Of a stretch of DNA of 64,000 bases, positions 55,093 to 64,000 are shown in pieces (position 1 is the first letter of the stretch; each line of letters opens with the position of its first letter). The stretch is taken from contig CAIJRK010000062.1 of NCBI GenBank assembly GCA_903823025.1, positions 1,710 through 65,709 of the forward strand, given 5' to 3'. The stretch comes from an uncultured beta proteobacterium (GTDB lineage Bacteria > Pseudomonadota > Gammaproteobacteria > Burkholderiales > Burkholderiaceae_C). The notes under the pieces were generated by a model. That model saw nothing but the letters and a program-made list of their open reading frames with translations. It had not been told where the DNA came from and ran no database searches. Both the position numbers and the translations under genes were made by a program.

Positions 55093-56262
55093 TTGAGTTC
55101 AGTTGTTACACAGCCCATGTACTTTGATACGGCATCAACAACTCAGATTGCTCAAGAGGTGCTTGACGAAATGGTTGCTTGCCTTAGTTCTAATGGATGT
55201 CATGGCAATCCTTCGTCGCTCATGCACCAGCCTGGTCGTGCTGCTGCGGCGGTAGTTGCTGCAGCGCGCAAGCAGATGGCCGCTGAGTTGGGCTGTGAGG
55301 CTGGAGAAATTTTGTTTACCTCAGGCGCTACCGAGGCAAACAACCTCGCAATTCAAGGTGTAGCGCTCGCGCATGCAGAACAAGGTCGCCACCTGATCAC
55401 GTCGAAAATAGAGCACAAATCTGTCCTTGAAACATGTCAAGCGTTAGAGCGACAAGGATTTGATGTGACCTATTTGACGCCTAATCGTGCGGGATGGATT
55501 GAGCTAGAAGATGTGAAGAATGCCTTGCGAACGGATACCTTGCTCGTCTCGTTAATGCACACTAACAATGAAACCGGTATTCAGCAACCGTTGGAGGCTG
55601 TGGCCGACTTGATAGCGAATGCTGGAGTACTTTTTCATGTTGATGCATCACAGGCTGCTGGCAAGTTTCGTATTGATCTCAATAGTATCCCCATTGATTT
55701 ACTATCGATTTCCGCACACAAATTTCACGGTCCCAAAGGTGCAGGATGTCTGTTTATCCGCAACCGGAGGCGATTAAAAATTCAGCCACTTGTCTTTGGT
55801 GGAGGACAAGAGTTTGGGCTGCGCTCTGGCACACTGGCAACCCACCAAATTGTTGGTTTGAGTGAAGCGATGCATCTTGCCGCATCTCGACGAGATGCTG
55901 ATTTTTTTCATGTCGTAGAACTAAAAAGTTTTTTCTTAGAGCGGCTTGCAATGCAGATCAAGATCAAGATTCATGGTGATCCACGATGCTGCTCACCCTA
56001 TCTCGTCAATATATCTATCGCTGGGATCAGCAGCGATGCACTGATTAATCAACTTTTAAACGATGTTGCCATCTCGTCTGGGGCAGCCTGTTCATCCGGA
56101 ACGATTGACTCTTCATACGTATTGCGGGCGATGGGCATAGATGGTGATGATTTGTATGGCGCGGTAAGGATAGGTTTTAGTCGATACCACACAATTTCCG
56201 ACGTTCTGAAGGCAGCACAACACATAGTTTCTGCTGTACATCGCATGCAAGAATTGGATTAG
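55093..56262 (+). CDS. sspA: IscS/DndA-type cysteine desulfurase of the PT system (SspA)
   Basis: YFDTASTT, FTSGATEANN, SAHKFHGPKG (PLP Lys), LRSGT, SSGAACSSG (catalytic Cys); TTG start after GGAGG; heads the DUF4007-ATPase-PAPS reductase operon. Confidence 0.85.
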   Translation: MSSVVTQPMYFDTASTTQIAQEVLDEMVACLSSNGCHGNPSSLMHQPGRAAAAVVAAARKQMAAELGCEAGEILFTSGATEANNLAIQGVALAHAEQGRHLITSKIEHKSVLETCQALERQGFDVTYLTPNRAGWIELEDVKNALRTDTLLVSLMHTNNETGIQQPLEAVADLIANAGVLFHVDASQAAGKFRIDLNSIPIDLLSISAHKFHGPKGAGCLFIRNRRRLKIQPLVFGGGQEFGLRSGTLATHQIVGLSEAMHLAASRRDADFFHVVELKSFFLERLAMQIKIKIHGDPRCCSPYLVNISIAGISSDALINQLLNDVAISSGAACSSGTIDSSYVLRAMGIDGDDLYGAVRIGFSRYHTISDVLKAAQHIVSAVHRMQELD

Positions 56263-56266
56263 ATTT

Positions 56267-57163
56267 ATGAAGATCAATAGAGAAAAAGCTACTTTTGGAC
56301 AACATGAAACCTTTCCATTACGTTATGGCTGGATGACGAAAGGAATTGAAGCAGTTACCAAAGCACCTAGTATTTTTACCACGCCTGAAAAAGCGATGAT
56401 TGAATTAGGAATAGGCAGCAACATGGTTAATGCGCTGCAATACTGGTTACGTGTTACTGGTATTGTTCGCTTTGAACAAGGCATATGCTCCGTCACTAGC
56501 CTTGGCAAGGTTCTTCTTGGTGATGAAGGTGATCCGTATCTGGAAGATGAAGCTACTCTTTGGATAATCCATTGGTTGATAGCATCAAATGCAGAACTTG
56601 CTACCGGATTTTTCTGGTTTTTTAATTACTTTGTTACGCCGCGCTTTCAAGATAAAGATACGTTGCAAGCTTTGGGCGAATTTGTCTCATTAGAACTCAA
56701 AGCAAATCGTTCACACAGCACGCTTAAGTCAGATATTTCGACACTTTTTCGTATGTACGCGCCAGCAACAGGCAAGGCGGACGAACACCTTGATTCGCCG
56801 CTTTCTCAATTGCAGTTGGTTGACAGGGAAGAGGGATATGGACATTGCAGCGTGCGCCGTGCGCGCCCGTTTCTACCATCAATTGCACTGCATTTTGCAC
56901 TGCAGGCGTGCTTTTCTGCACAGCCAGAACAGCCCGCCCTTTCAATCCGAGCACTCCTGTACGGCGGTGAGGGTCGTGCTGCTCCTGGTGCGATCTTTCG
57001 TTTGAATGAAGAGGGATTCATGAGCGCACTGGCGCGTGTCATTGCGTCTTACCCTGACATTTATGAGTTGCGTGAAACTGCTGGCTTGCATCAACTTTAC
57101 CGCCGTAACAAGACCAGCGATGCTGTGCCCGTGTTGCGTGCCTATTATCAAAAGGCTGCTTAA
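56267..57163 (+). CDS. sspB: DUF4007 protein (SspB nicking endonuclease)
   Basis: FGQHETFPLRYGWMTKG, LGIGSNMVNALQYWL, DPYLEDEATLWIIHW, GAIFRLNEE, ETAGLHQL. Confidence 0.87.
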   Translation: MKINREKATFGQHETFPLRYGWMTKGIEAVTKAPSIFTTPEKAMIELGIGSNMVNALQYWLRVTGIVRFEQGICSVTSLGKVLLGDEGDPYLEDEATLWIIHWLIASNAELATGFFWFFNYFVTPRFQDKDTLQALGEFVSLELKANRSHSTLKSDISTLFRMYAPATGKADEHLDSPLSQLQLVDREEGYGHCSVRRARPFLPSIALHFALQACFSAQPEQPALSIRALLYGGEGRAAPGAIFRLNEEGFMSALARVIASYPDIYELRETAGLHQLYRRNKTSDAVPVLRAYYQKAA

Positions 57164-60100
57164 TGGCTAGCTTAAACCATCAAATTCATATCCGTTCAAC
57201 CTATACGCGCTCAATTAATTTACAACGTGATAGTGATAATCTAGAGCTAATTCAGGCATACGTGCTTACGTCCAAGGCAATTCAGGCACTTGAGCGAATT
57301 GCGGAAGGTTTTACGTCGGTAGCGCATGAAAGATCATTGGCTTTAATTGGTCCCTATGGTTCTGGGAAATCGGCTTTTGCGCTTTTCCTATCGGTTTTGC
57401 TGAATGCAGGAAAGTGTGCTGCACACAGAGTTGCGCTTACCAAACTTCAAATAAGCGCACCGCATCTCTTTCCTGTTTTTCAAAAAACGCTGGTTGGTCG
57501 GAGAGGATTTCTGCGGGTTGTAATCAACGGCATTCCGACCTCCCTGAAGCAGCAAGTGATGTCTGCACTTGCACTCGCAGTGGAGCGAGAAAAAATCAAC
57601 CCACGTCTTGTCGCTAAAATTCGCGCGGCGGTGTTGGCGGACGCGGCAATGGATAAGCTCATCTTGCTTTTTGGCGATGTACAAAATGCATGGGCTTTGA
57701 TTGGCGGCAGTGGCGTCTTGCTTGAAATCGACGAACTAGGCAAGTTCTTGGAGTATGAGTCTTATCATCCGCAGCATAGCGAAATACACCTGTTGCAATT
57801 ACTTGCGGAACATGCTCAGCAAGCCCACGCAGCACCCCTGCATTTGGTGGTAATGCTGCATCAGGCTTTTGAGGAATACACCAACAGAGTGGGCAAACAC
57901 TTACGTGATGAATGGCAAAAAGTGCAGGGTCGTTTTAGTGCTATTGCTTTTCTAGAGCCTGCAGAGCAGGCGCTGCGTGTGGTATCGGCTGCTTTTGACA
58001 GTAATCACGTACTATTGCCAGCGACAAGAACTGCAGTCGATGTGATCACCGAAACACTGGTACGCGAAGGTGCTCTAGCGTATGGACTCAAGGCAAACCA
58101 AGCACGAAAATTATTCAAAAGTTGCTATCCGCTACATCCCTTGACAACGTTGATTCTGCCAGTGCTGTGTCAGAAGGTTGCACAAAACGAACGCACCATG
58201 TTTTCTTATCTCAGCAGCAAAGAGCCGTTTGGACTCTGCCTGCGGCTTGAGCAGATTACTTCTGGCGACTGGATTGAGCCATCCGAGTTGTATGACTATT
58301 TCATCCATAACCAGATGGGCGGATTCTCAGATCCGCTAACTTACCATCGTTGGATGGAAGTTATCACCGCGCTGGAACGCTTTGATGCGGAACCATCTGA
58401 CGCAGCCGTGCGGTTGCTCAAAACAATCGGTGTATTGAATTTGATTGGTGCACAGCGTGGGCTGAAAGCCAGCCCCGCGCTGTTGAAATGCCTGTTTAGT
58501 GACAAATTTGATGAGTTAATTACAAGACTAGAACAAGCCTCTGTCATTCATTATCGTAGTTACAGTCAAGAATATCGAGTCTGGCAAGGTACTGACTTTG
58601 ACTTAAGCGGGGCGCTGCGCGCTGTTGTTGCCGAATTTTCGAGTTTGCCGCTGGTGCAAACTTTGAATCAGTTGGCACTGATGAAGCCCATCGTCGCACG
58701 CCGTGCAAGCATTGTTACTGGATCCCTGCGGTGCTTCATTCCCCGCTTTATTGATCAGCATACGCGTTCGGATGATGTCGAAGGTGATGGTAAAACCGGG
58801 TTGCGACTTTGGTTTTATCTTGCAGAGAGCGATGAGCAACAGCCGAATCTAGCAGATCTATCTGAATTCGATGTTGTCGCAGTTTGTCAGTTCACCGAGC
58901 GTCTGCGTGAATCGGTCATCAACACCATGGCGTTGCGTGAGTTGCCAAAACGCCATGCGACTCTGCATAACGATCCAGTTGCCCAGCGTGAGCATCGCGC
59001 ATGGCTTGCCAATGCGGAAGCAGAAACAGAGCAATTGTTTCGCACGCTGCTCAATGAGCCTAACCAGCTGTGCTGGTTTTGGGGCCGCAATGAAGCGCGG
59101 GTGCTTAACCGGCGTGATTTGCAAGAACATCTATCCGATTGGGCGCAGGAACATTGTTTTTCAAAATCACCTCACTTGCGTAATGAACTGATTAATTGGG
59201 ACTCGCCTTCTCCAAGCGCTAACACCGGGCGCAAGCGGTTGCTAGTTGCAATGCTCAGTGCTGCTGATCAGGTCAATCTTGGCATTGAAAAAACACCGGC
59301 TGAGATGAGTCTGTATTTGTCGCTACTGAAGGCTAGCCACCTGCATCGCCAAGAAAACGGGCGGTGGGGTTTTCACGCTCCTGATAAGGAAGACCCTTGC
59401 CGACTCAAGGAAGTGTGGCACGCTATCATGCGCTTGCTTGGCAATAGCGGCGGGCGCCAAGTACAAATATCGGCAATCTACCAACACCTGCGTAGTGCGC
59501 CGTTTGGCGTCAAATTAGGCGTATTGCCGGTGTTGATCGTCGCTTATCTGCTCGCCCATCGTCGCGAAGTTGCTCTTTATCAAGAGGGCAGTTTTTGTGA
59601 CACATTGACAATGGACCAAGCCGAGTTGTTATGCCGCCGTCCCGAGCTGTTCGCCATTGAGCGCTTTGATATGGCGGGATTGCGCGGAAACTTATTCAAC
59701 CGCTATATCAGTTCAGTGGTAGGCGAAGTCAGAGAAGACGCTTCTCTACTCGATATTGTTCGACCACTTGTGCAATTCATTTCAAATCTTCCGCTTTACA
59801 CCAGGCAATGTAAAGGCTTGAGCAAAGAAGCTATGCAGGTACGCGACGCTTTTTCTAATGCAAAAAGTCCAGGCGTGCTGTTGTTTGAAGCGCTACCCCA
59901 AGCGTGTGGCTTGGCACATGGTGCCTTTTCTTCCAACGACCCGTCCATCGTAGAGCAATTTATAGACCACCTTGTACGCGTCTTGCGCGAGTTGAAAGAC
60001 GCGTATGCGTTGATGCTGAAAGGGTGGCAAAGTGCCCTCAATCTTTCATTATTAGATGAAGAAATTCCTCAGCTGTCGCTATTGCGCCAGACACTTGCAC

Positions 60101-60561
60101 GCCGTTACCTCGACCTTGAACGCTACACCCCAGATCGTATGGGCGCTGGGGCGTTGATTTGTCGACTTGGTGAGACAAGTCACAGTTCAGACCAGGCATG
60201 GCTTGAGTCTTTGGGAACCTTGCTTGGCCGTGTACCGCCCCATAAATGGCGCGAAGAAAACCGACTGCAAGCCGAATTGCGTTTGCATGAGATGGCGGAG
60301 AAATTGCGTGAACTTGAGCAATTGCGTTTGGCCGTGCCTGGACACTTGAATTCTGCGAATGGGACATTGCTGGTGAAGATGGTGGATGCCGAGCGCGGAG
60401 AGTTTAGCCGCGTGATACAGGTTTCTAGCGCGCAAAGGGCTGTCGCCGTCACCAATGCTGACAAAGTTGCCAAGAGTTTGGTTGGACTTGACGAGGCTGC
60501 ACAGCTAGCGGTCGTCGCCATTTTGCTGGAGCGCCTGTCTAAGACTGTTTCTAAATTGTGA
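57163..60561 (+). CDS. sspC: Large P-loop ATPase (SspC)
   Basis: YTRSINLQRD, GPYGSGKS Walker A, IDELGKFLE, EWQKVQGRF, YPLHP, AQNERTMFSYL; 1132 aa between DUF4007 and the PAPS reductase. Confidence 0.85.
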   Translation: MASLNHQIHIRSTYTRSINLQRDSDNLELIQAYVLTSKAIQALERIAEGFTSVAHERSLALIGPYGSGKSAFALFLSVLLNAGKCAAHRVALTKLQISAPHLFPVFQKTLVGRRGFLRVVINGIPTSLKQQVMSALALAVEREKINPRLVAKIRAAVLADAAMDKLILLFGDVQNAWALIGGSGVLLEIDELGKFLEYESYHPQHSEIHLLQLLAEHAQQAHAAPLHLVVMLHQAFEEYTNRVGKHLRDEWQKVQGRFSAIAFLEPAEQALRVVSAAFDSNHVLLPATRTAVDVITETLVREGALAYGLKANQARKLFKSCYPLHPLTTLILPVLCQKVAQNERTMFSYLSSKEPFGLCLRLEQITSGDWIEPSELYDYFIHNQMGGFSDPLTYHRWMEVITALERFDAEPSDAAVRLLKTIGVLNLIGAQRGLKASPALLKCLFSDKFDELITRLEQASVIHYRSYSQEYRVWQGTDFDLSGALRAVVAEFSSLPLVQTLNQLALMKPIVARRASIVTGSLRCFIPRFIDQHTRSDDVEGDGKTGLRLWFYLAESDEQQPNLADLSEFDVVAVCQFTERLRESVINTMALRELPKRHATLHNDPVAQREHRAWLANAEAETEQLFRTLLNEPNQLCWFWGRNEARVLNRRDLQEHLSDWAQEHCFSKSPHLRNELINWDSPSPSANTGRKRLLVAMLSAADQVNLGIEKTPAEMSLYLSLLKASHLHRQENGRWGFHAPDKEDPCRLKEVWHAIMRLLGNSGGRQVQISAIYQHLRSAPFGVKLGVLPVLIVAYLLAHRREVALYQEGSFCDTLTMDQAELLCRRPELFAIERFDMAGLRGNLFNRYISSVVGEVREDASLLDIVRPLVQFISNLPLYTRQCKGLSKEAMQVRDAFSNAKSPGVLLFEALPQACGLAHGAFSSNDPSIVEQFIDHLVRVLRELKDAYALMLKGWQSALNLSLLDEEIPQLSLLRQTLARRYLDLERYTPDRMGAGALICRLGETSHSSDQAWLESLGTLLGRVPPHKWREENRLQAELRLHEMAEKLRELEQLRLAVPGHLNSANGTLLVKMVDAERGEFSRVIQVSSAQRAVAVTNADKVAKSLVGLDEAAQLAVVAILLERLSKTVSKL

Positions 60562-60638
60562 CATCAGCTAAAAATATAAACGAATAGATTGAAGTAAAAA
60601 TCTCGTATATTTATTATCGTATTAAAAAGGATTTAATA

Positions 60639-61454
60639 ATGAGTGAGATAGTTAACAAAAAGCCAGTACGTCATTTATTAGGACTATCAGGTGGAAAAGA
60701 TAGTTCTGCACTGGCGATTTATTTGAGAGACAAAGTTCCTGAGATGGAGTACTTTTTTAGCGACACAGGCGCTGAATTGCCGGAAACTTTAGAGTTTATA
60801 GATATGCTTGAGGATTACCTAGGTAAGCCAATTGTTCGATTAAATGCCGGTCGAGATTTTGATTATTATTTAAAGCTAAATGGAAATTTTTTACCAACTG
60901 CACAAGCAAGATGGTGCACTATAAATTTAAAAATAAAGCCATTTGAAGAATATGTTGGAAATGATGAAGCAATCACATACGTTGGCATACGAGCTGATGA
61001 AACTTATCGTCAAGGTTATCTTTCAAAGAAAAAAAATATTTCTGCAAGATATCCATTTATTGAAGATGGAATAGCAAAAGATGATGTTTTTGAGATATTA
61101 AAATTATCTGGCATTGGTGTACCAAAATATTATGAATGGCGAAGTCGATCCGGCTGTTATTTTTGCTTTTTTCAAAGAAAAGATGAATGGGTTGGATTAA
61201 ATGAAAGACATCCTGATTTATATAAAAAAGCAATGTCATATGAAGATTTTCATAAGGAAAATGGCAGAGATCACACCTGGTCTCAGGGGGAACGTCTTGA
61301 GAATCTAATGAAAAGATCTATAGAAATTAAAAACAATGCGAATGTACAAAAAAATGCTGAAGCAAGCAAGCCAAAAAAGAAACTTTTAGATAAATTTTCT
61401 GATGATGATGATAATAGTAGTGATGATGACTCATGTTTAATGTGTCATTTATAG
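60639..61454 (+). CDS. sspD: PAPS-reductase-family ATP pyrophosphatase (SspD)
   Basis: LSGGKDSSALA PP-loop, DTGAELPET, RWCT, YVGIRADE, RSRSGCYFCFFQRKDEW, C-terminal CLMCHL. Confidence 0.88.
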   Translation: MSEIVNKKPVRHLLGLSGGKDSSALAIYLRDKVPEMEYFFSDTGAELPETLEFIDMLEDYLGKPIVRLNAGRDFDYYLKLNGNFLPTAQARWCTINLKIKPFEEYVGNDEAITYVGIRADETYRQGYLSKKKNISARYPFIEDGIAKDDVFEILKLSGIGVPKYYEWRSRSGCYFCFFQRKDEWVGLNERHPDLYKKAMSYEDFHKENGRDHTWSQGERLENLMKRSIEIKNNANVQKNAEASKPKKKLLDKFSDDDDNSSDDDSCLMCHL

Positions 61455-61460
61455 AAATTC

Positions 61461-63773
61461 ATGGAAAAAATAATTTCTAAATTTAATAAAATTATAATCG
61501 GTAAAAATAATAAAAATTATTCACCACATAAACCTATATTAATTTTAATATCTTTGCATAAGTGTTTTTATGGAAAAGATAGGTTAGTTAAATTTTCTGA
61601 ATATGAGGAATTATTTGAATTGATATCAAATGCATTTGATATAAAAATAATTCTTCAGTATCCATTTATTAGATTGGTCTCAGATGGAATATGGGAGGTT
61701 GAAAATTTTAATAACTTATTAAAAAATAAGTCAGGCGATGTTTCAAGAAAAATATTAATTGATCTGGAAATTAGGGGCGGTTTTACGCATCAACTATATA
61801 AGTTTTTATTTGAAAATAAAAATACTTTATTGTTGATTTATGAAAATGTGTTGACGAAATTTTTTGAAAAAGAGAAGCAAAGTATTATTAGTAATATACT
61901 TAAATTTCCAGCTTATTGTATTTCAAAAAATTATTTAGAAAAAGATATAAAAATTAGGGAGGTTTCAATGTCCTACGCCGAAGAAGTTAATCCTAGAAAA
62001 ATAAATAATAACGGTTTTATCTCTTATCTAAATTCTTTGCATAATATACAGGCAAGCGGAGCTAATGCATTAGCAGAATCACAAGTTCTAAATCCTTATT
62101 TTTTAGAACTATATAAACCGTTTCCATTAGTTGATATAGTTTTCAATGCTCTGATTGATGATGTTCCGCGCGTTATAGTACTTACTGGCCATGCTGGTGA
62201 TGGAAAATCGACGATAGCATTTGATGTTTTGAAGAAATTGCGTAGTCTTGCCAGCGATAAAGCGCTTGATACTGCGATCAACGAACGGGAAGACATCCCT
62301 CATGCAAGTGGACCTGTTTCAATTATTAAAGATATGAGTGAGCTAACTGCTGCGCAACGTTTGATATGGTTAGGGCAAGCGTTTAATGAGGTGGGCTGTT
62401 GGTTGATTGTAAGCAATACGGGGCCATTACTTAATAGTTTAAATGAGTATGCAAAATTAATTAATAAAGATGATTATCTTGAAAGCGAAATATTAGAATT
62501 ACTTAACCAGCCGTATGAAGGCGGCAGTCTAGATCGATATACGCTCCCCGGTTTTTCAAAAGAATTAGTTGTTTTGAATATGGCAAGATTGGATAACGTA
62601 AATCTTGGTGCAAGTTTGTTGACACGCATGCTTGAGCACTCTGCATGGGATGAATGCGACGGGTGCGAAGCAAAATCTATCTGTCCATTAAGGCAGAATC
62701 GTGAAGCGTTACAGCAAGCTGGAGAGATTGTGGAGGATAGGATACGCTGGGTTTACCAGCGTATTACTGCTTATGAGCAGCGTTTAACTTTGCGTCAAAT
62801 GGTGGGTCATTTGGCATTGAGTCTGACTGGCGGTATGAGTTGCGCAACTATACGTAGTAATAATTTAGACAGTGGGGTTGATGGCTTAGAAGAAATTCTA
62901 TTCAGCGAAAATTTTTTCGGTTGCAGACGTGGTGTACCTTGGATCGAGGCTGAAGAATTACGGGTGATCAAGTTGATACGTAATCTGGTATTCGGTGGCC
63001 CAATAGCCCCGAATTTTGAGCGACTATTTTTTACCCCACAAGTAGATTCATGGATAGCGATGCCTACTGCATTATTAGATATTCAAACGAAATGGAATAT
63101 TGGTGCTCGTGATTCAACCGGTATTCGGTGGCGTTTCGCTTTACGCCGTATGATTTATTTTTTCGCATATACAGTTAATAAAAATAAAATTTTAGAGTCA
63201 GTATTTATAGATACATTTCTTCAATCAGCTAAGTTACGTAGTCTTGATAAATGGCAGCAGGAATGCAGTTTTCAATCATCGACAACAAGCGAACAAAATA
63301 AATTAAAAAAAGAATGTTTACAGGTATTACTTGAGACTTATTCAGGTTTCAGCGCAGGACAGTTTGACTCCCATCAAGGACGGTTATATCTTACTTTACG
63401 CCGCCCAGATCGAACTGTGGTTCAGCCAACTCAATTAGTTGTAGCAGAGTTAGATTATTATGATTTCTCGATAGAATATGATTCTGAACGCAGAATTCCA
63501 TTTTTACGATTTAAACCAAACAAAACTGACCTTCTATTAACTTTGCCGCTCCTTGATTATATTAATGCCAGAAGCATTGGGAATTTTGGTAATAGTTTAG
63601 CGCCTATTCATCTTGCTCAACTAGAAATTTTTCGTGCATCATTGCTGATATTTTTTAATAACCGTGGCTATATAGATGGAGAAATAGATCTTCTTTGTGC
63701 AGAAATTGATGGAAGTGTAAAATTACATAGATATTTTTTAGATGAAAATAACAATAACCTAGAGCTACGTTAA
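61461..63773 (+). CDS. SspF/DndF-like P-loop ATPase with in-frame N-terminal ScoMcrA-type sulfur-binding domain (SBD)
   Basis: aa 1-~150: SPHKPILIL, QYPFIRLVSDGIWEV, RGGF...LTKFF (SBD-HNH family motifs). From aa 170: FISYLNSL...GANALAESQ, LTGHAGDGKST, IIKDMSE, IVSNTGPL, RLTLRQMVGHLA. Confidence 0.75.
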   Translation: MEKIISKFNKIIIGKNNKNYSPHKPILILISLHKCFYGKDRLVKFSEYEELFELISNAFDIKIILQYPFIRLVSDGIWEVENFNNLLKNKSGDVSRKILIDLEIRGGFTHQLYKFLFENKNTLLLIYENVLTKFFEKEKQSIISNILKFPAYCISKNYLEKDIKIREVSMSYAEEVNPRKINNNGFISYLNSLHNIQASGANALAESQVLNPYFLELYKPFPLVDIVFNALIDDVPRVIVLTGHAGDGKSTIAFDVLKKLRSLASDKALDTAINEREDIPHASGPVSIIKDMSELTAAQRLIWLGQAFNEVGCWLIVSNTGPLLNSLNEYAKLINKDDYLESEILELLNQPYEGGSLDRYTLPGFSKELVVLNMARLDNVNLGASLLTRMLEHSAWDECDGCEAKSICPLRQNREALQQAGEIVEDRIRWVYQRITAYEQRLTLRQMVGHLALSLTGGMSCATIRSNNLDSGVDGLEEILFSENFFGCRRGVPWIEAEELRVIKLIRNLVFGGPIAPNFERLFFTPQVDSWIAMPTALLDIQTKWNIGARDSTGIRWRFALRRMIYFFAYTVNKNKILESVFIDTFLQSAKLRSLDKWQQECSFQSSTTSEQNKLKKECLQVLLETYSGFSAGQFDSHQGRLYLTLRRPDRTVVQPTQLVVAELDYYDFSIEYDSERRIPFLRFKPNKTDLLLTLPLLDYINARSIGNFGNSLAPIHLAQLEIFRASLLIFFNNRGYIDGEIDLLCAEIDGSVKLHRYFLDENNNNLELR

Positions 63774-64000
63774 TGAATAACAAAAAATTATCTACAGTAG
63801 ATCAGGATATTTTAAAACGTTTTCCAATTAATAAAGAAAGTAGTGAATCAAATTCAGAAGAATGCAATCCTGCAATATTATTGTATGGCAGACGATTTTA
63901 TAAAGATCAAACATTAGTTGAGTACCTTTCAGAGTTTTTATTAGCCTTCTCATCTCCAAAAAAAGTAAATGGTGATTATTCATATAAATTCAATATAGGA
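63773..64000 (+). CDS. Start of the next PT-restriction gene (SspG-like by position), truncated by the window end
   Basis: TAATG stop/start overlap; open frame to the edge: MNNKKLSTVDQDILKRFP...NPAILLYGRRFYKDQTLVEYLSEFLLAFSSPK. Identity inferred from synteny only. Confidence 0.6.
   Translation, partial: MNNKKLSTVDQDILKRFPINKESSESNSEECNPAILLYGRRFYKDQTLVEYLSEFLLAFSSPKKVNGDYSYKFNIG

Follow-up and report, generated by a model that had tools for sequence, protein, structure and literature searches.

The DNA analysed here (the window) is a stretch of 64,000 nucleotides (nt) from an uncultured beta proteobacterium, covering positions 1710-65709 of contig CAIJRK010000062.1 in a host genome of 89 contigs (assembly GCA_903823025.1). 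Close to its end, an uninterrupted open reading frame (ORF) of 770 amino acids (aa) at 61461-63773 (+ strand) joins a sulfur-binding domain (SBD) in frame to a P-loop protein of the SspF family. The gene is best explained as the SspF subunit of an SspABCD-SspFGH phosphorothioate (PT) restriction-modification system, with the SBD tethered by a linker of ~30 residues. It is proposed, with a probability of roughly 0.55, that the tethered SBD reads the PT mark of the host itself and restrains the SspF-G-H complex on self DNA. The N-terminal domain is confirmed as a true ScoMcrA-type SBD with an intact sulfur pocket, and SBD-SspF is a common architecture of one large SspFGH branch.

The SBD occupies aa 1-152 (61461..61916, + strand) and is supported by profile, fold and pocket comparisons. 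Residues 4-167 align with positions 3-167 of the 284 in the NCBIfam model NF045808, 'phosphorothioated DNA-binding restriction endonuclease' (E 1.4e-18). The match is confined to the SBD half of the model, and its score falls under the model cut-off because the HNH half is missing. A family profile built from 18 homologous N-termini and run against PDB matched the ScoMcrA SBD (5ZMO) at E 3.8e-14, the SprMcrA SBDs (7CC9, 7CCD and 7CCJ) at ~1e-8 and the Hga SBD (8H0L) at 0.11. With the single sequence, phmmer searches of PDB gave spurious CDK12 matches only, and the SBD similarity emerged with the family profile. Furthermore, the fusion protein and its homologues carry the precomputed label PF26340 (DNA-SBD_ScoMcrA).

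Structural modelling led to the same assignment. An AlphaFold2 model of the full-length protein, based on a 65-sequence alignment, has a mean predicted local distance difference test score (pLDDT) of 84.9 and a predicted template modelling score (pTM) of 0.72, and in a model of the isolated domain aa 1-150 all exceed pLDDT 86. Both models place a compact helical/winged domain (aa 1-152) before a disordered linker (aa 153-180; 61917..62000, + strand; pLDDT <50 in both) and then the nucleoside triphosphatase (NTPase). The linker differs in length and sequence between homologues. When the domain model was searched with Foldseek, it fell on 5ZMO_A with E 2.1e-8, probability 1.00 and template modelling scores of 0.67 for the query (TMq) and 0.78 for the target (TMt). 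The top 15 matches are all SBDs and are followed by winged helix-turn-helix (wHTH) proteins of the MarR type at E >0.1; the full-length model yields identical top matches. The characteristic motifs of this part are SPHKPILIL (aa 21-29), QYPFIRLVSDGIWEV (66-80), RGGF (105-108) and LTKFF (131-135). Scans with Pfam, NCBIfam and PADLOC detected no nuclease domain in the fusion protein, whether HNH or another family such as PD-(D/E)XK.

An HMMER alignment places H116, R117 and P118 of ScoMcrA on H23, K24 and P25 of the window protein, Y164 and P165 on Y67 and P68, and A168 on R71, the last at a variable position. The roles of these residues in the ScoMcrA pocket have been described (Liu et al., 2018; PMC6224610), and the same study reports that most homologues have Lys in place of R117, that Y164 is kept in only a subset of them and that A168R is tolerated. 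In a set of 48 SspF-linked SBDs the pocket His is conserved in 39/48, the Lys and the Pro each in 45/48 and the Tyr in 28/48, with F69, L72 and W78 near-invariant. Overall, the domain has diverged at about double the rate of the SspF core, with 27-34% identity to nearest relatives against 51-57%, and the loop matching the base-reading segment S187-R191 of ScoMcrA is highly variable. PT binding by the SBD of the fusion protein is a prediction. Two of the aligned SBDs pair a His to Tyr with a Pro to Ala replacement in the same protein (LYKP ... HYAFGRL), and the sulfur pocket may here exist in a compensated form.

The remainder of the protein is the SspF core (aa 181-770; 62001..63773, + strand), a P-loop NTPase modelled at pLDDT ~85-95. 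Five PADLOC SspF models match aa 186-509, the best at E 1e-25 (aa 186-489), with the alignment beginning at profile position 3. Because the SspF profiles align only from aa 186 onward, residues 1-185 are extra to canonical SspF. These profiles align over the N-terminal half of the core only, and the C-terminal 280 aa are family-specific, ending in a beta-rich domain. The Walker A motif GHAGDGKST (aa 243-251; nt 62187-62213, + strand) is invariant across 65 homologues, and a Walker-B-like KDMSE lies at aa 290-294. Equally invariant among the 65 is the cluster H393/C399/C402/C408 within HSAWDECDGCEAKSICP (aa 393-408; 62637-62684), possibly a zinc-binding site. For the core, structure searches recovered no convincing solved relative, only weak matches to IRG-GTPase, ORC and AAA+ proteins, and the PADLOC DndF models did not match the SspF of the window. 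An original prediction, made from the letters of this stretch, had already described most of this arrangement. The reading frame and the motifs it quoted are all present where it placed them. Its reading of the N-terminus as an SBD with a sulfur pocket is upheld by the NF045808 match, the 5ZMO profile match and the TMt value. The modelled fold agrees, with SBDs throughout the top matches, and the HNH domain it had called absent is missing from all three scans. Likewise, the predicted in-frame fusion to an SspF-like P-loop protein in a PT-writing operon is borne out by the PADLOC SspF match and by sspA-D, which lie directly upstream.

The fusion recurs in many organisms. A word-indexed protein search returned 591 homologous clusters; among the best 120 of these, 112 are full-length proteins of 750-821 aa with 44-66% identity and the PF26340 label, and a few are ~600 aa long without it. 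The search for other SBD-SspF fusions that had been suggested was therefore successful, and a single-strain artefact is excluded. Genomes were also scanned at one per GTDB species, giving 214 loci; the 80 best were examined together with the window (81 loci, a set that leans towards similarity to the query). N-terminal architectures were called with an iterated SBD profile and with probes for NERD (nuclease-related) and kinase domains. SBD-SspF was found at 35 of the 81 loci, SBD-NERD-tandem Ser/Thr kinase-SspF at 13, NERD-kinase-SspF at nine and no N-terminal extension at 21, and three kinase-bearing loci are cut by contig ends. In the long SspF frames (1350-1555 aa), the NERD and tandem Ser/Thr kinase domains precede the SspF core, with matches in the kinase region to NCBIfam MAD6 (as low as E 9e-112) and to PglW. 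At four of the 21 loci without an extension, the SBD either has a reading frame of its own immediately before the SspF core or persists as an 86-aa remnant, which could reflect frameshifts, assembly errors or ongoing decay.

SBD-bearing SspF proteins occur in Methylococcaceae, Chromatiaceae, Thiotrichaceae/Thiolinaceae and Competibacteraceae and, at 26-30% identity, in Thermodesulfobacteriota, Acidobacteriota, Verrucomicrobiota, Elusimicrobiota, Cloacimonadota, Bacillota, Planctomycetota and several candidate phyla; Methylobacter marinus A45 and Thiothrix lacustris DSM 21227 are examples of hosts. In all, 52 of the 81 loci, from about a dozen phyla, have an SBD on SspF. Among 400 genomes sampled evenly from the host's class, the full fusion was found in only two, the host and one other; the fusion is therefore widespread yet sparse. 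In a maximum-likelihood tree of SspF cores, the window protein falls inside a gammaproteobacterial clade of 19 members that all carry the SBD (support 98), and the neighbouring group includes SBD-less proteins from Thiodiazotropha, Endozoicomonas and Motiliproteus.

The position of the gene relative to the PT writer is regular. At every SBD-bearing locus with sufficient upstream flank (35/35), sspBCD lie directly upstream and are co-directional. An adjacent writer in only 3/17 SBD-less cassettes against 35/35 (Fisher p 4e-10, 10-kb flanks) had suggested that the SBD-less cassettes are independent of PT. This idea was rejected, as SspD is encoded in 12/13 such genomes, and in nine of the 12 regions fetched around SspD the genes sspD-C-B are convergent just past the 10-kb flank. 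The SBD-less layout is mostly F-G-H-DUF4007-SspC-like facing a convergent D-C-B; in the Psychrobacter loci the writer follows sspH in the same direction or is located elsewhere. None of the regions fetched around SBD-less systems encodes an SBD. The SBD thus tracks an operon arrangement, in which sspD leads directly into SBD-sspF, and not the presence of a writer.

The same domain is found beyond SspF. An exhaustive HMMER search with aa 1-152 returned 472 representative clusters, and in the top 150 of these, SspF-length proteins interleave in score with proteins of ~300 aa. HNH_2 is present in 43, and DUF4007 in five, of the 78 closest SBD relatives with a length of 230 aa or more. One protein with DUF4007 is encoded in the complete genome CP032507.1 (GCA_008375315.1), where an SBD-DUF4007 fusion of 460 aa is the first gene after sspD. 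In this locus sspA, sspB and sspC are followed by a small Polbeta pair, sspD, SBD-DUF4007, a gene of 148 aa, a BrxC-like gene of 1312 aa, PglZ and BrxL; a BREX-4-like effector module with an SBD at its head is here combined with an Ssp writer. This SBD shares 43% identity with that of the window, above every SspF-linked SBD in the representative set. Two different effector modules after sspD therefore open with an SBD fusion, which argues that the job of the domain is tied to the host's own mark. A loop common to the two SBDs, 'SGDVSRKIL', was considered as a feature tracking the writer and was left unused as evidence, the CP032507.1 writer being no closer to that of the window than others.

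Taken together, these observations could be accommodated by the following mechanism. SspABCD would write a single-strand PT mark on host DNA, and SspF-G-H, probably with the DUF4007/SspC-like pair encoded downstream, would form a DNA-scanning, damage-inflicting complex against unmarked DNA. Docking of the SBD on Rp-PT linkages of host DNA would change the NTPase state of SspF, and the complex would then stall on, or dissociate from, self DNA. Such PT-driven restraint of SspF is modelled on DndFGH, where PT represses ATP hydrolysis and translocation (PMC11662687). In the SspABCD-SspFGH system of Vibrio anguillarum FF-93, SspFGH inflicts damage on DNA that lacks PT and becomes toxic when PT is missing (Wang et al., 2021; PMC8092258). 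The proposed mechanism is favoured because the pocket is conserved despite the fast divergence of the domain, because the gene is linked to the writer, because the SBD recurs on DUF4007 and because SspFGH without PT is toxic. The SBD may, furthermore, be a portable self-mark reader that has repeatedly been added to the first gene of the effector module after sspD, a broader idea to which slightly less than an even chance is given. The platforms on which it is observed are SspF, with or without the NERD-tandem-kinase insert, and the DUF4007 protein heading the PglZ/BrxL module.

Several points weigh against the proposal of a self-mark reader. His23 is replaced by Tyr, Asn or Asp in 9/48 SspF-linked SBDs and Pro68 by Ala in 3/48, and the Vibrio SspF has been reported with the Walker A motif only (PMC8092258). 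The direction of the SBD effect, which would be restraint and not activation, is itself deduced by analogy. SBD-less SspF proteins stand next to sspBCD writers in Thiodiazotropha, Endozoicomonas, Motiliproteus, Psychrobacter, Acinetobacter and others, so that PT discrimination is possible without an SBD and the domain is an accessory module and not a defining principle. Moreover, the SBD was gained or lost at least five times on the SspF-core tree. The NERD-kinase insert changed a similar number of times, and the N-terminus of SspF is therefore a swap site, with the states none, SBD, NERD-kinase and SBD-NERD-kinase, in which the SBD again behaves as an accessory. Finally, partial Mantel correlations of SBD divergence with that of SspB, SspC and SspD, with the SspF core controlled for, are positive for every gene including SspG and are therefore non-specific. 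Given the writer-linked relatives that lack it, the most likely role of the SBD is to sharpen or supplement a discrimination already present in the core complex.

Other explanations assign the domain a different task. In a manner resembling SspE, the SBD could anchor or license the complex on host PT, with PT stimulating the NTPase and no brake on self-attack being involved. The NTPases SspE and DndI are stimulated by PT, and the defence that they provide requires host PT or is tuned by it; both the flexible tether, which suits a docking or anchoring role, and the strict co-directional linkage to the writer would fit such an activation. However, the SspFGH that has been studied needs no PT to be active and toxic, which speaks against PT being required in the family, and SBD-less relatives have the same partners; PT-dependent activation is regarded as unlikely. 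It is somewhat more doubtful still that the SBD fold serves as a non-specific DNA-binding wHTH anchor for SspF, with PT discrimination located elsewhere in the complex. A comparative analysis does count the SBD as a winged-helix variant, MarR-type wHTH proteins are the next fold matches after the SBDs, SBD-less systems discriminate nonetheless, and the His23 or Pro68 replacements noted above exist in some family members. Set against this, the sulfur-pocket residues are the most conserved positions of a fast-evolving domain, which among the loci examined occurs in PT-writer contexts only.

Alternatively, the SBD could act as in type IV enzymes, reading non-host PT, for example the double-strand PT of Dnd type, and recruiting SspFGH to it as an additional modification-dependent arm. 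In a 2023 survey, 94% of SBDs reside in HNH enzymes that attack PT DNA, and the scores of the 43 HNH_2 proteins among the 78 closest relatives intermingle with those of the SspF-linked SBDs. The high variability at the ScoMcrA S187-R191 position would also suit a detector of foreign marks. A foreign-PT sensor would need no writer linkage, whereas SBD-SspF follows sspD directly in 35/35 loci and this placement is repeated in a second effector type. Moreover, as SBDs usually accept several sequence contexts, such a sensor would run a high risk of self-targeting. Detection of foreign PT is considered the most improbable of these accounts.

Should the SBD indeed restrain the complex on host DNA, a type IV domain for cutting PT DNA would have been rewired to spare it, and one reader domain would serve opposite logics in type IV enzymes and in restriction-modification-like systems. 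These SBDs would then be natural readers specific for single-strand Ssp-type PT and the first defined PT sensor of SspFGH-class restriction. How the sparse PT mark, with only 10-15% of sites modified, is recognised by SspFGH and DndFGH is an acknowledged question, and a paper of January 2026 states that both sense PT 'by poorly understood mechanisms' (PMC12914056). SBD-SspF offers a concrete, mutable candidate for the sensor in SspFGH-type restriction. With a structurally defined PT pocket on a wide SspF branch and natural SBD-less controls, the question becomes directly testable, for example at H23, K24 and P68. The SspF-linked SBDs also point to new specificities that are potentially useful in PT-detection tools.

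The operon in which the fusion lies runs sspA-B-C-D, SBD-sspF-G-H and then a second DUF4007/SspC-like pair. Within the window, all on the + strand, sspA (55093..56262) encodes a cysteine desulfurase of 389 aa (PADLOC SspA E 3.4e-137; Pfam Aminotran_5), sspB (56267..57163) a DUF4007 protein of 298 aa (PADLOC SspB E 5e-74; Pfam DUF4007 E 1.9e-71), sspC (57163..60561) a BrxC-like ATPase of 1132 aa (PADLOC SspC, 1213 bits, full length) and sspD (60639..61454) a sulfur transferase of the PAPS-reductase family with 271 aa (PADLOC SspD E 2.5e-111; Pfam PAPS_reduct). Six bases separate the sspD stop from the sspF ATG, and the sspF stop overlaps by 1 nt with the start of sspG (63773..64000, + strand; 531 aa), which runs past the window end and whose product matches PADLOC SspG in its C-terminal part only (E 9e-14). 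Beyond the window follows sspH, whose 1764-aa product has a HerA/FtsK-like C-terminus. It matches PADLOC SspH at E 1.6e-22, DndH at E 3.5e-60 over its C-terminal ATPase (aa 1385-1683) and Pfam DUF87, AAA_10 and FtsK. After sspH come a DUF4007/SspB-like gene (302 aa; contig 72645-73553) and an SspC/BrxC-like gene (1499 aa; contig 73574-78073). This pair is kept after sspFGH in most related loci across phyla and is absent from the Psychrobacter-type loci; given its conservation, the functional cassette may consist of five genes, compared with the three described. No second SBD and no SBD-HNH enzyme were found in the 89 contigs of the host genome. One related locus, from Candidatus Competibacteraceae, belongs to a genome of the same class as the host, which makes the host a gammaproteobacterium.

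The island is compositionally foreign. Guanine-cytosine (GC) fractions are 0.55-0.60 in flanking genes, 0.46-0.53 in sspA-C, 0.24-0.44 in sspD, SBD-sspF and sspG, and 0.44-0.51 from sspH onward, and a sharp trough extends over window positions 60500-64000 and on to ~65400, lowest in the SBD-coding part (0.24). This mosaic suggests a horizontally acquired island. The low-GC block of sspD, sspF and sspG was also considered as a recombined segment, and per-gene identities to relatives, all of 45-75%, were unable to discriminate. PHROGs searches gave no matches, a single weak plasmid match was recorded, and no tRNA was found at the island border. Among relatives, the type of SspB and SspC is shuffled against the rest of the system. 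Some have SspB at ~40% and SspC at ~38% identity to the window but SspD at ~65% and SspG at 52-64%, and others have SspB at 56-63% and SspC at ~60%.

With regard to earlier descriptions, a literature search found no paper linking an SBD to SspF or SspFGH, save one citing both separately, and two large comparative studies, on Dnd and on the BREX machinery, do not mention the fusion. The original prediction held that SspF or DndF subunits with an SBD had not been described, and no such description was found. It also allowed that surveys might already list the fusion, and this is partly the case: Pfam PF26340 and a UniRef name already tag SBD-SspF proteins, and the 2023 survey lists an 'SBD + unknown + kinase' clade. 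This clade and the SBD-NERD-tandem Ser/Thr kinase-SspF proteins of 13 genomes here are very probably the same. However, its 'unknown domain' was not recognised as SspF, the clade was not tied to Ssp systems, and the window protein is the shorter SBD-SspF form lacking both NERD and kinase. The functional idea of the prediction, direct reading of the host's own PT mark by the effector complex or detection of foreign PT patterns, is reasonable as a hypothesis. An 'undescribed system' in the strong sense, as the prediction had put it, was not sustained, since the fusion is a common architecture of a known SspFGH branch and writer-linked relatives without the SBD exist.

The closest known system is the SspABCD-SspFGH of Vibrio, with which the window shares the sspA/B/C/D writer, a P-loop SspF, SspG, an SspH with a HerA/FtsK-like C-terminus and, presumably, attack on DNA lacking the PT mark. 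It differs in the extra 185-residue N-terminus of SspF (SBD and linker), which the PADLOC SspF profiles lack and which has not been reported for the Vibrio protein, in the conserved second DUF4007/SspC-like pair that follows the cassette and in a writer that lies upstream and co-directional, whereas that of SBD-less relatives is usually convergent and downstream. DndFGH is similarly a three-subunit ATPase/translocase restriction module with a PT writer, and the window SspH matches DndH, but DndFGH pairs with double-strand PT and has no reported SBD. HerA/FtsK-centred BREX-related capture (BRC) systems and type 4 BREX (NAR 2026; PMC12839542) share a STAND-like NTPase, DUF4007, a BrxC/DUF6079-like ATPase and a HerA/FtsK translocase, and the SBD-DUF4007, PglZ and BrxL module after sspABCD in CP032507.1 also resembles them. 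In contrast, the window cassette has no PglZ, BrxL, GNAT or TGT, and the BRC and BREX papers make no mention of an SBD. The ScoMcrA/SprMcrA/EcoWI-type SBD-HNH type IV enzymes (5ZMO, 7CC9) possess a homologous SBD of the same fold (TM 0.7-0.78) with the His/Lys(Arg)/Tyr/Pro sulfur pocket, which in their case directs the cutting of PT DNA. In the window protein the SBD is instead joined to an NTPase without a recognisable nuclease. Being part of a PT-writing system, it must therefore tolerate the host's own PT and not attack it, and the same reader would here direct the sparing of PT DNA.

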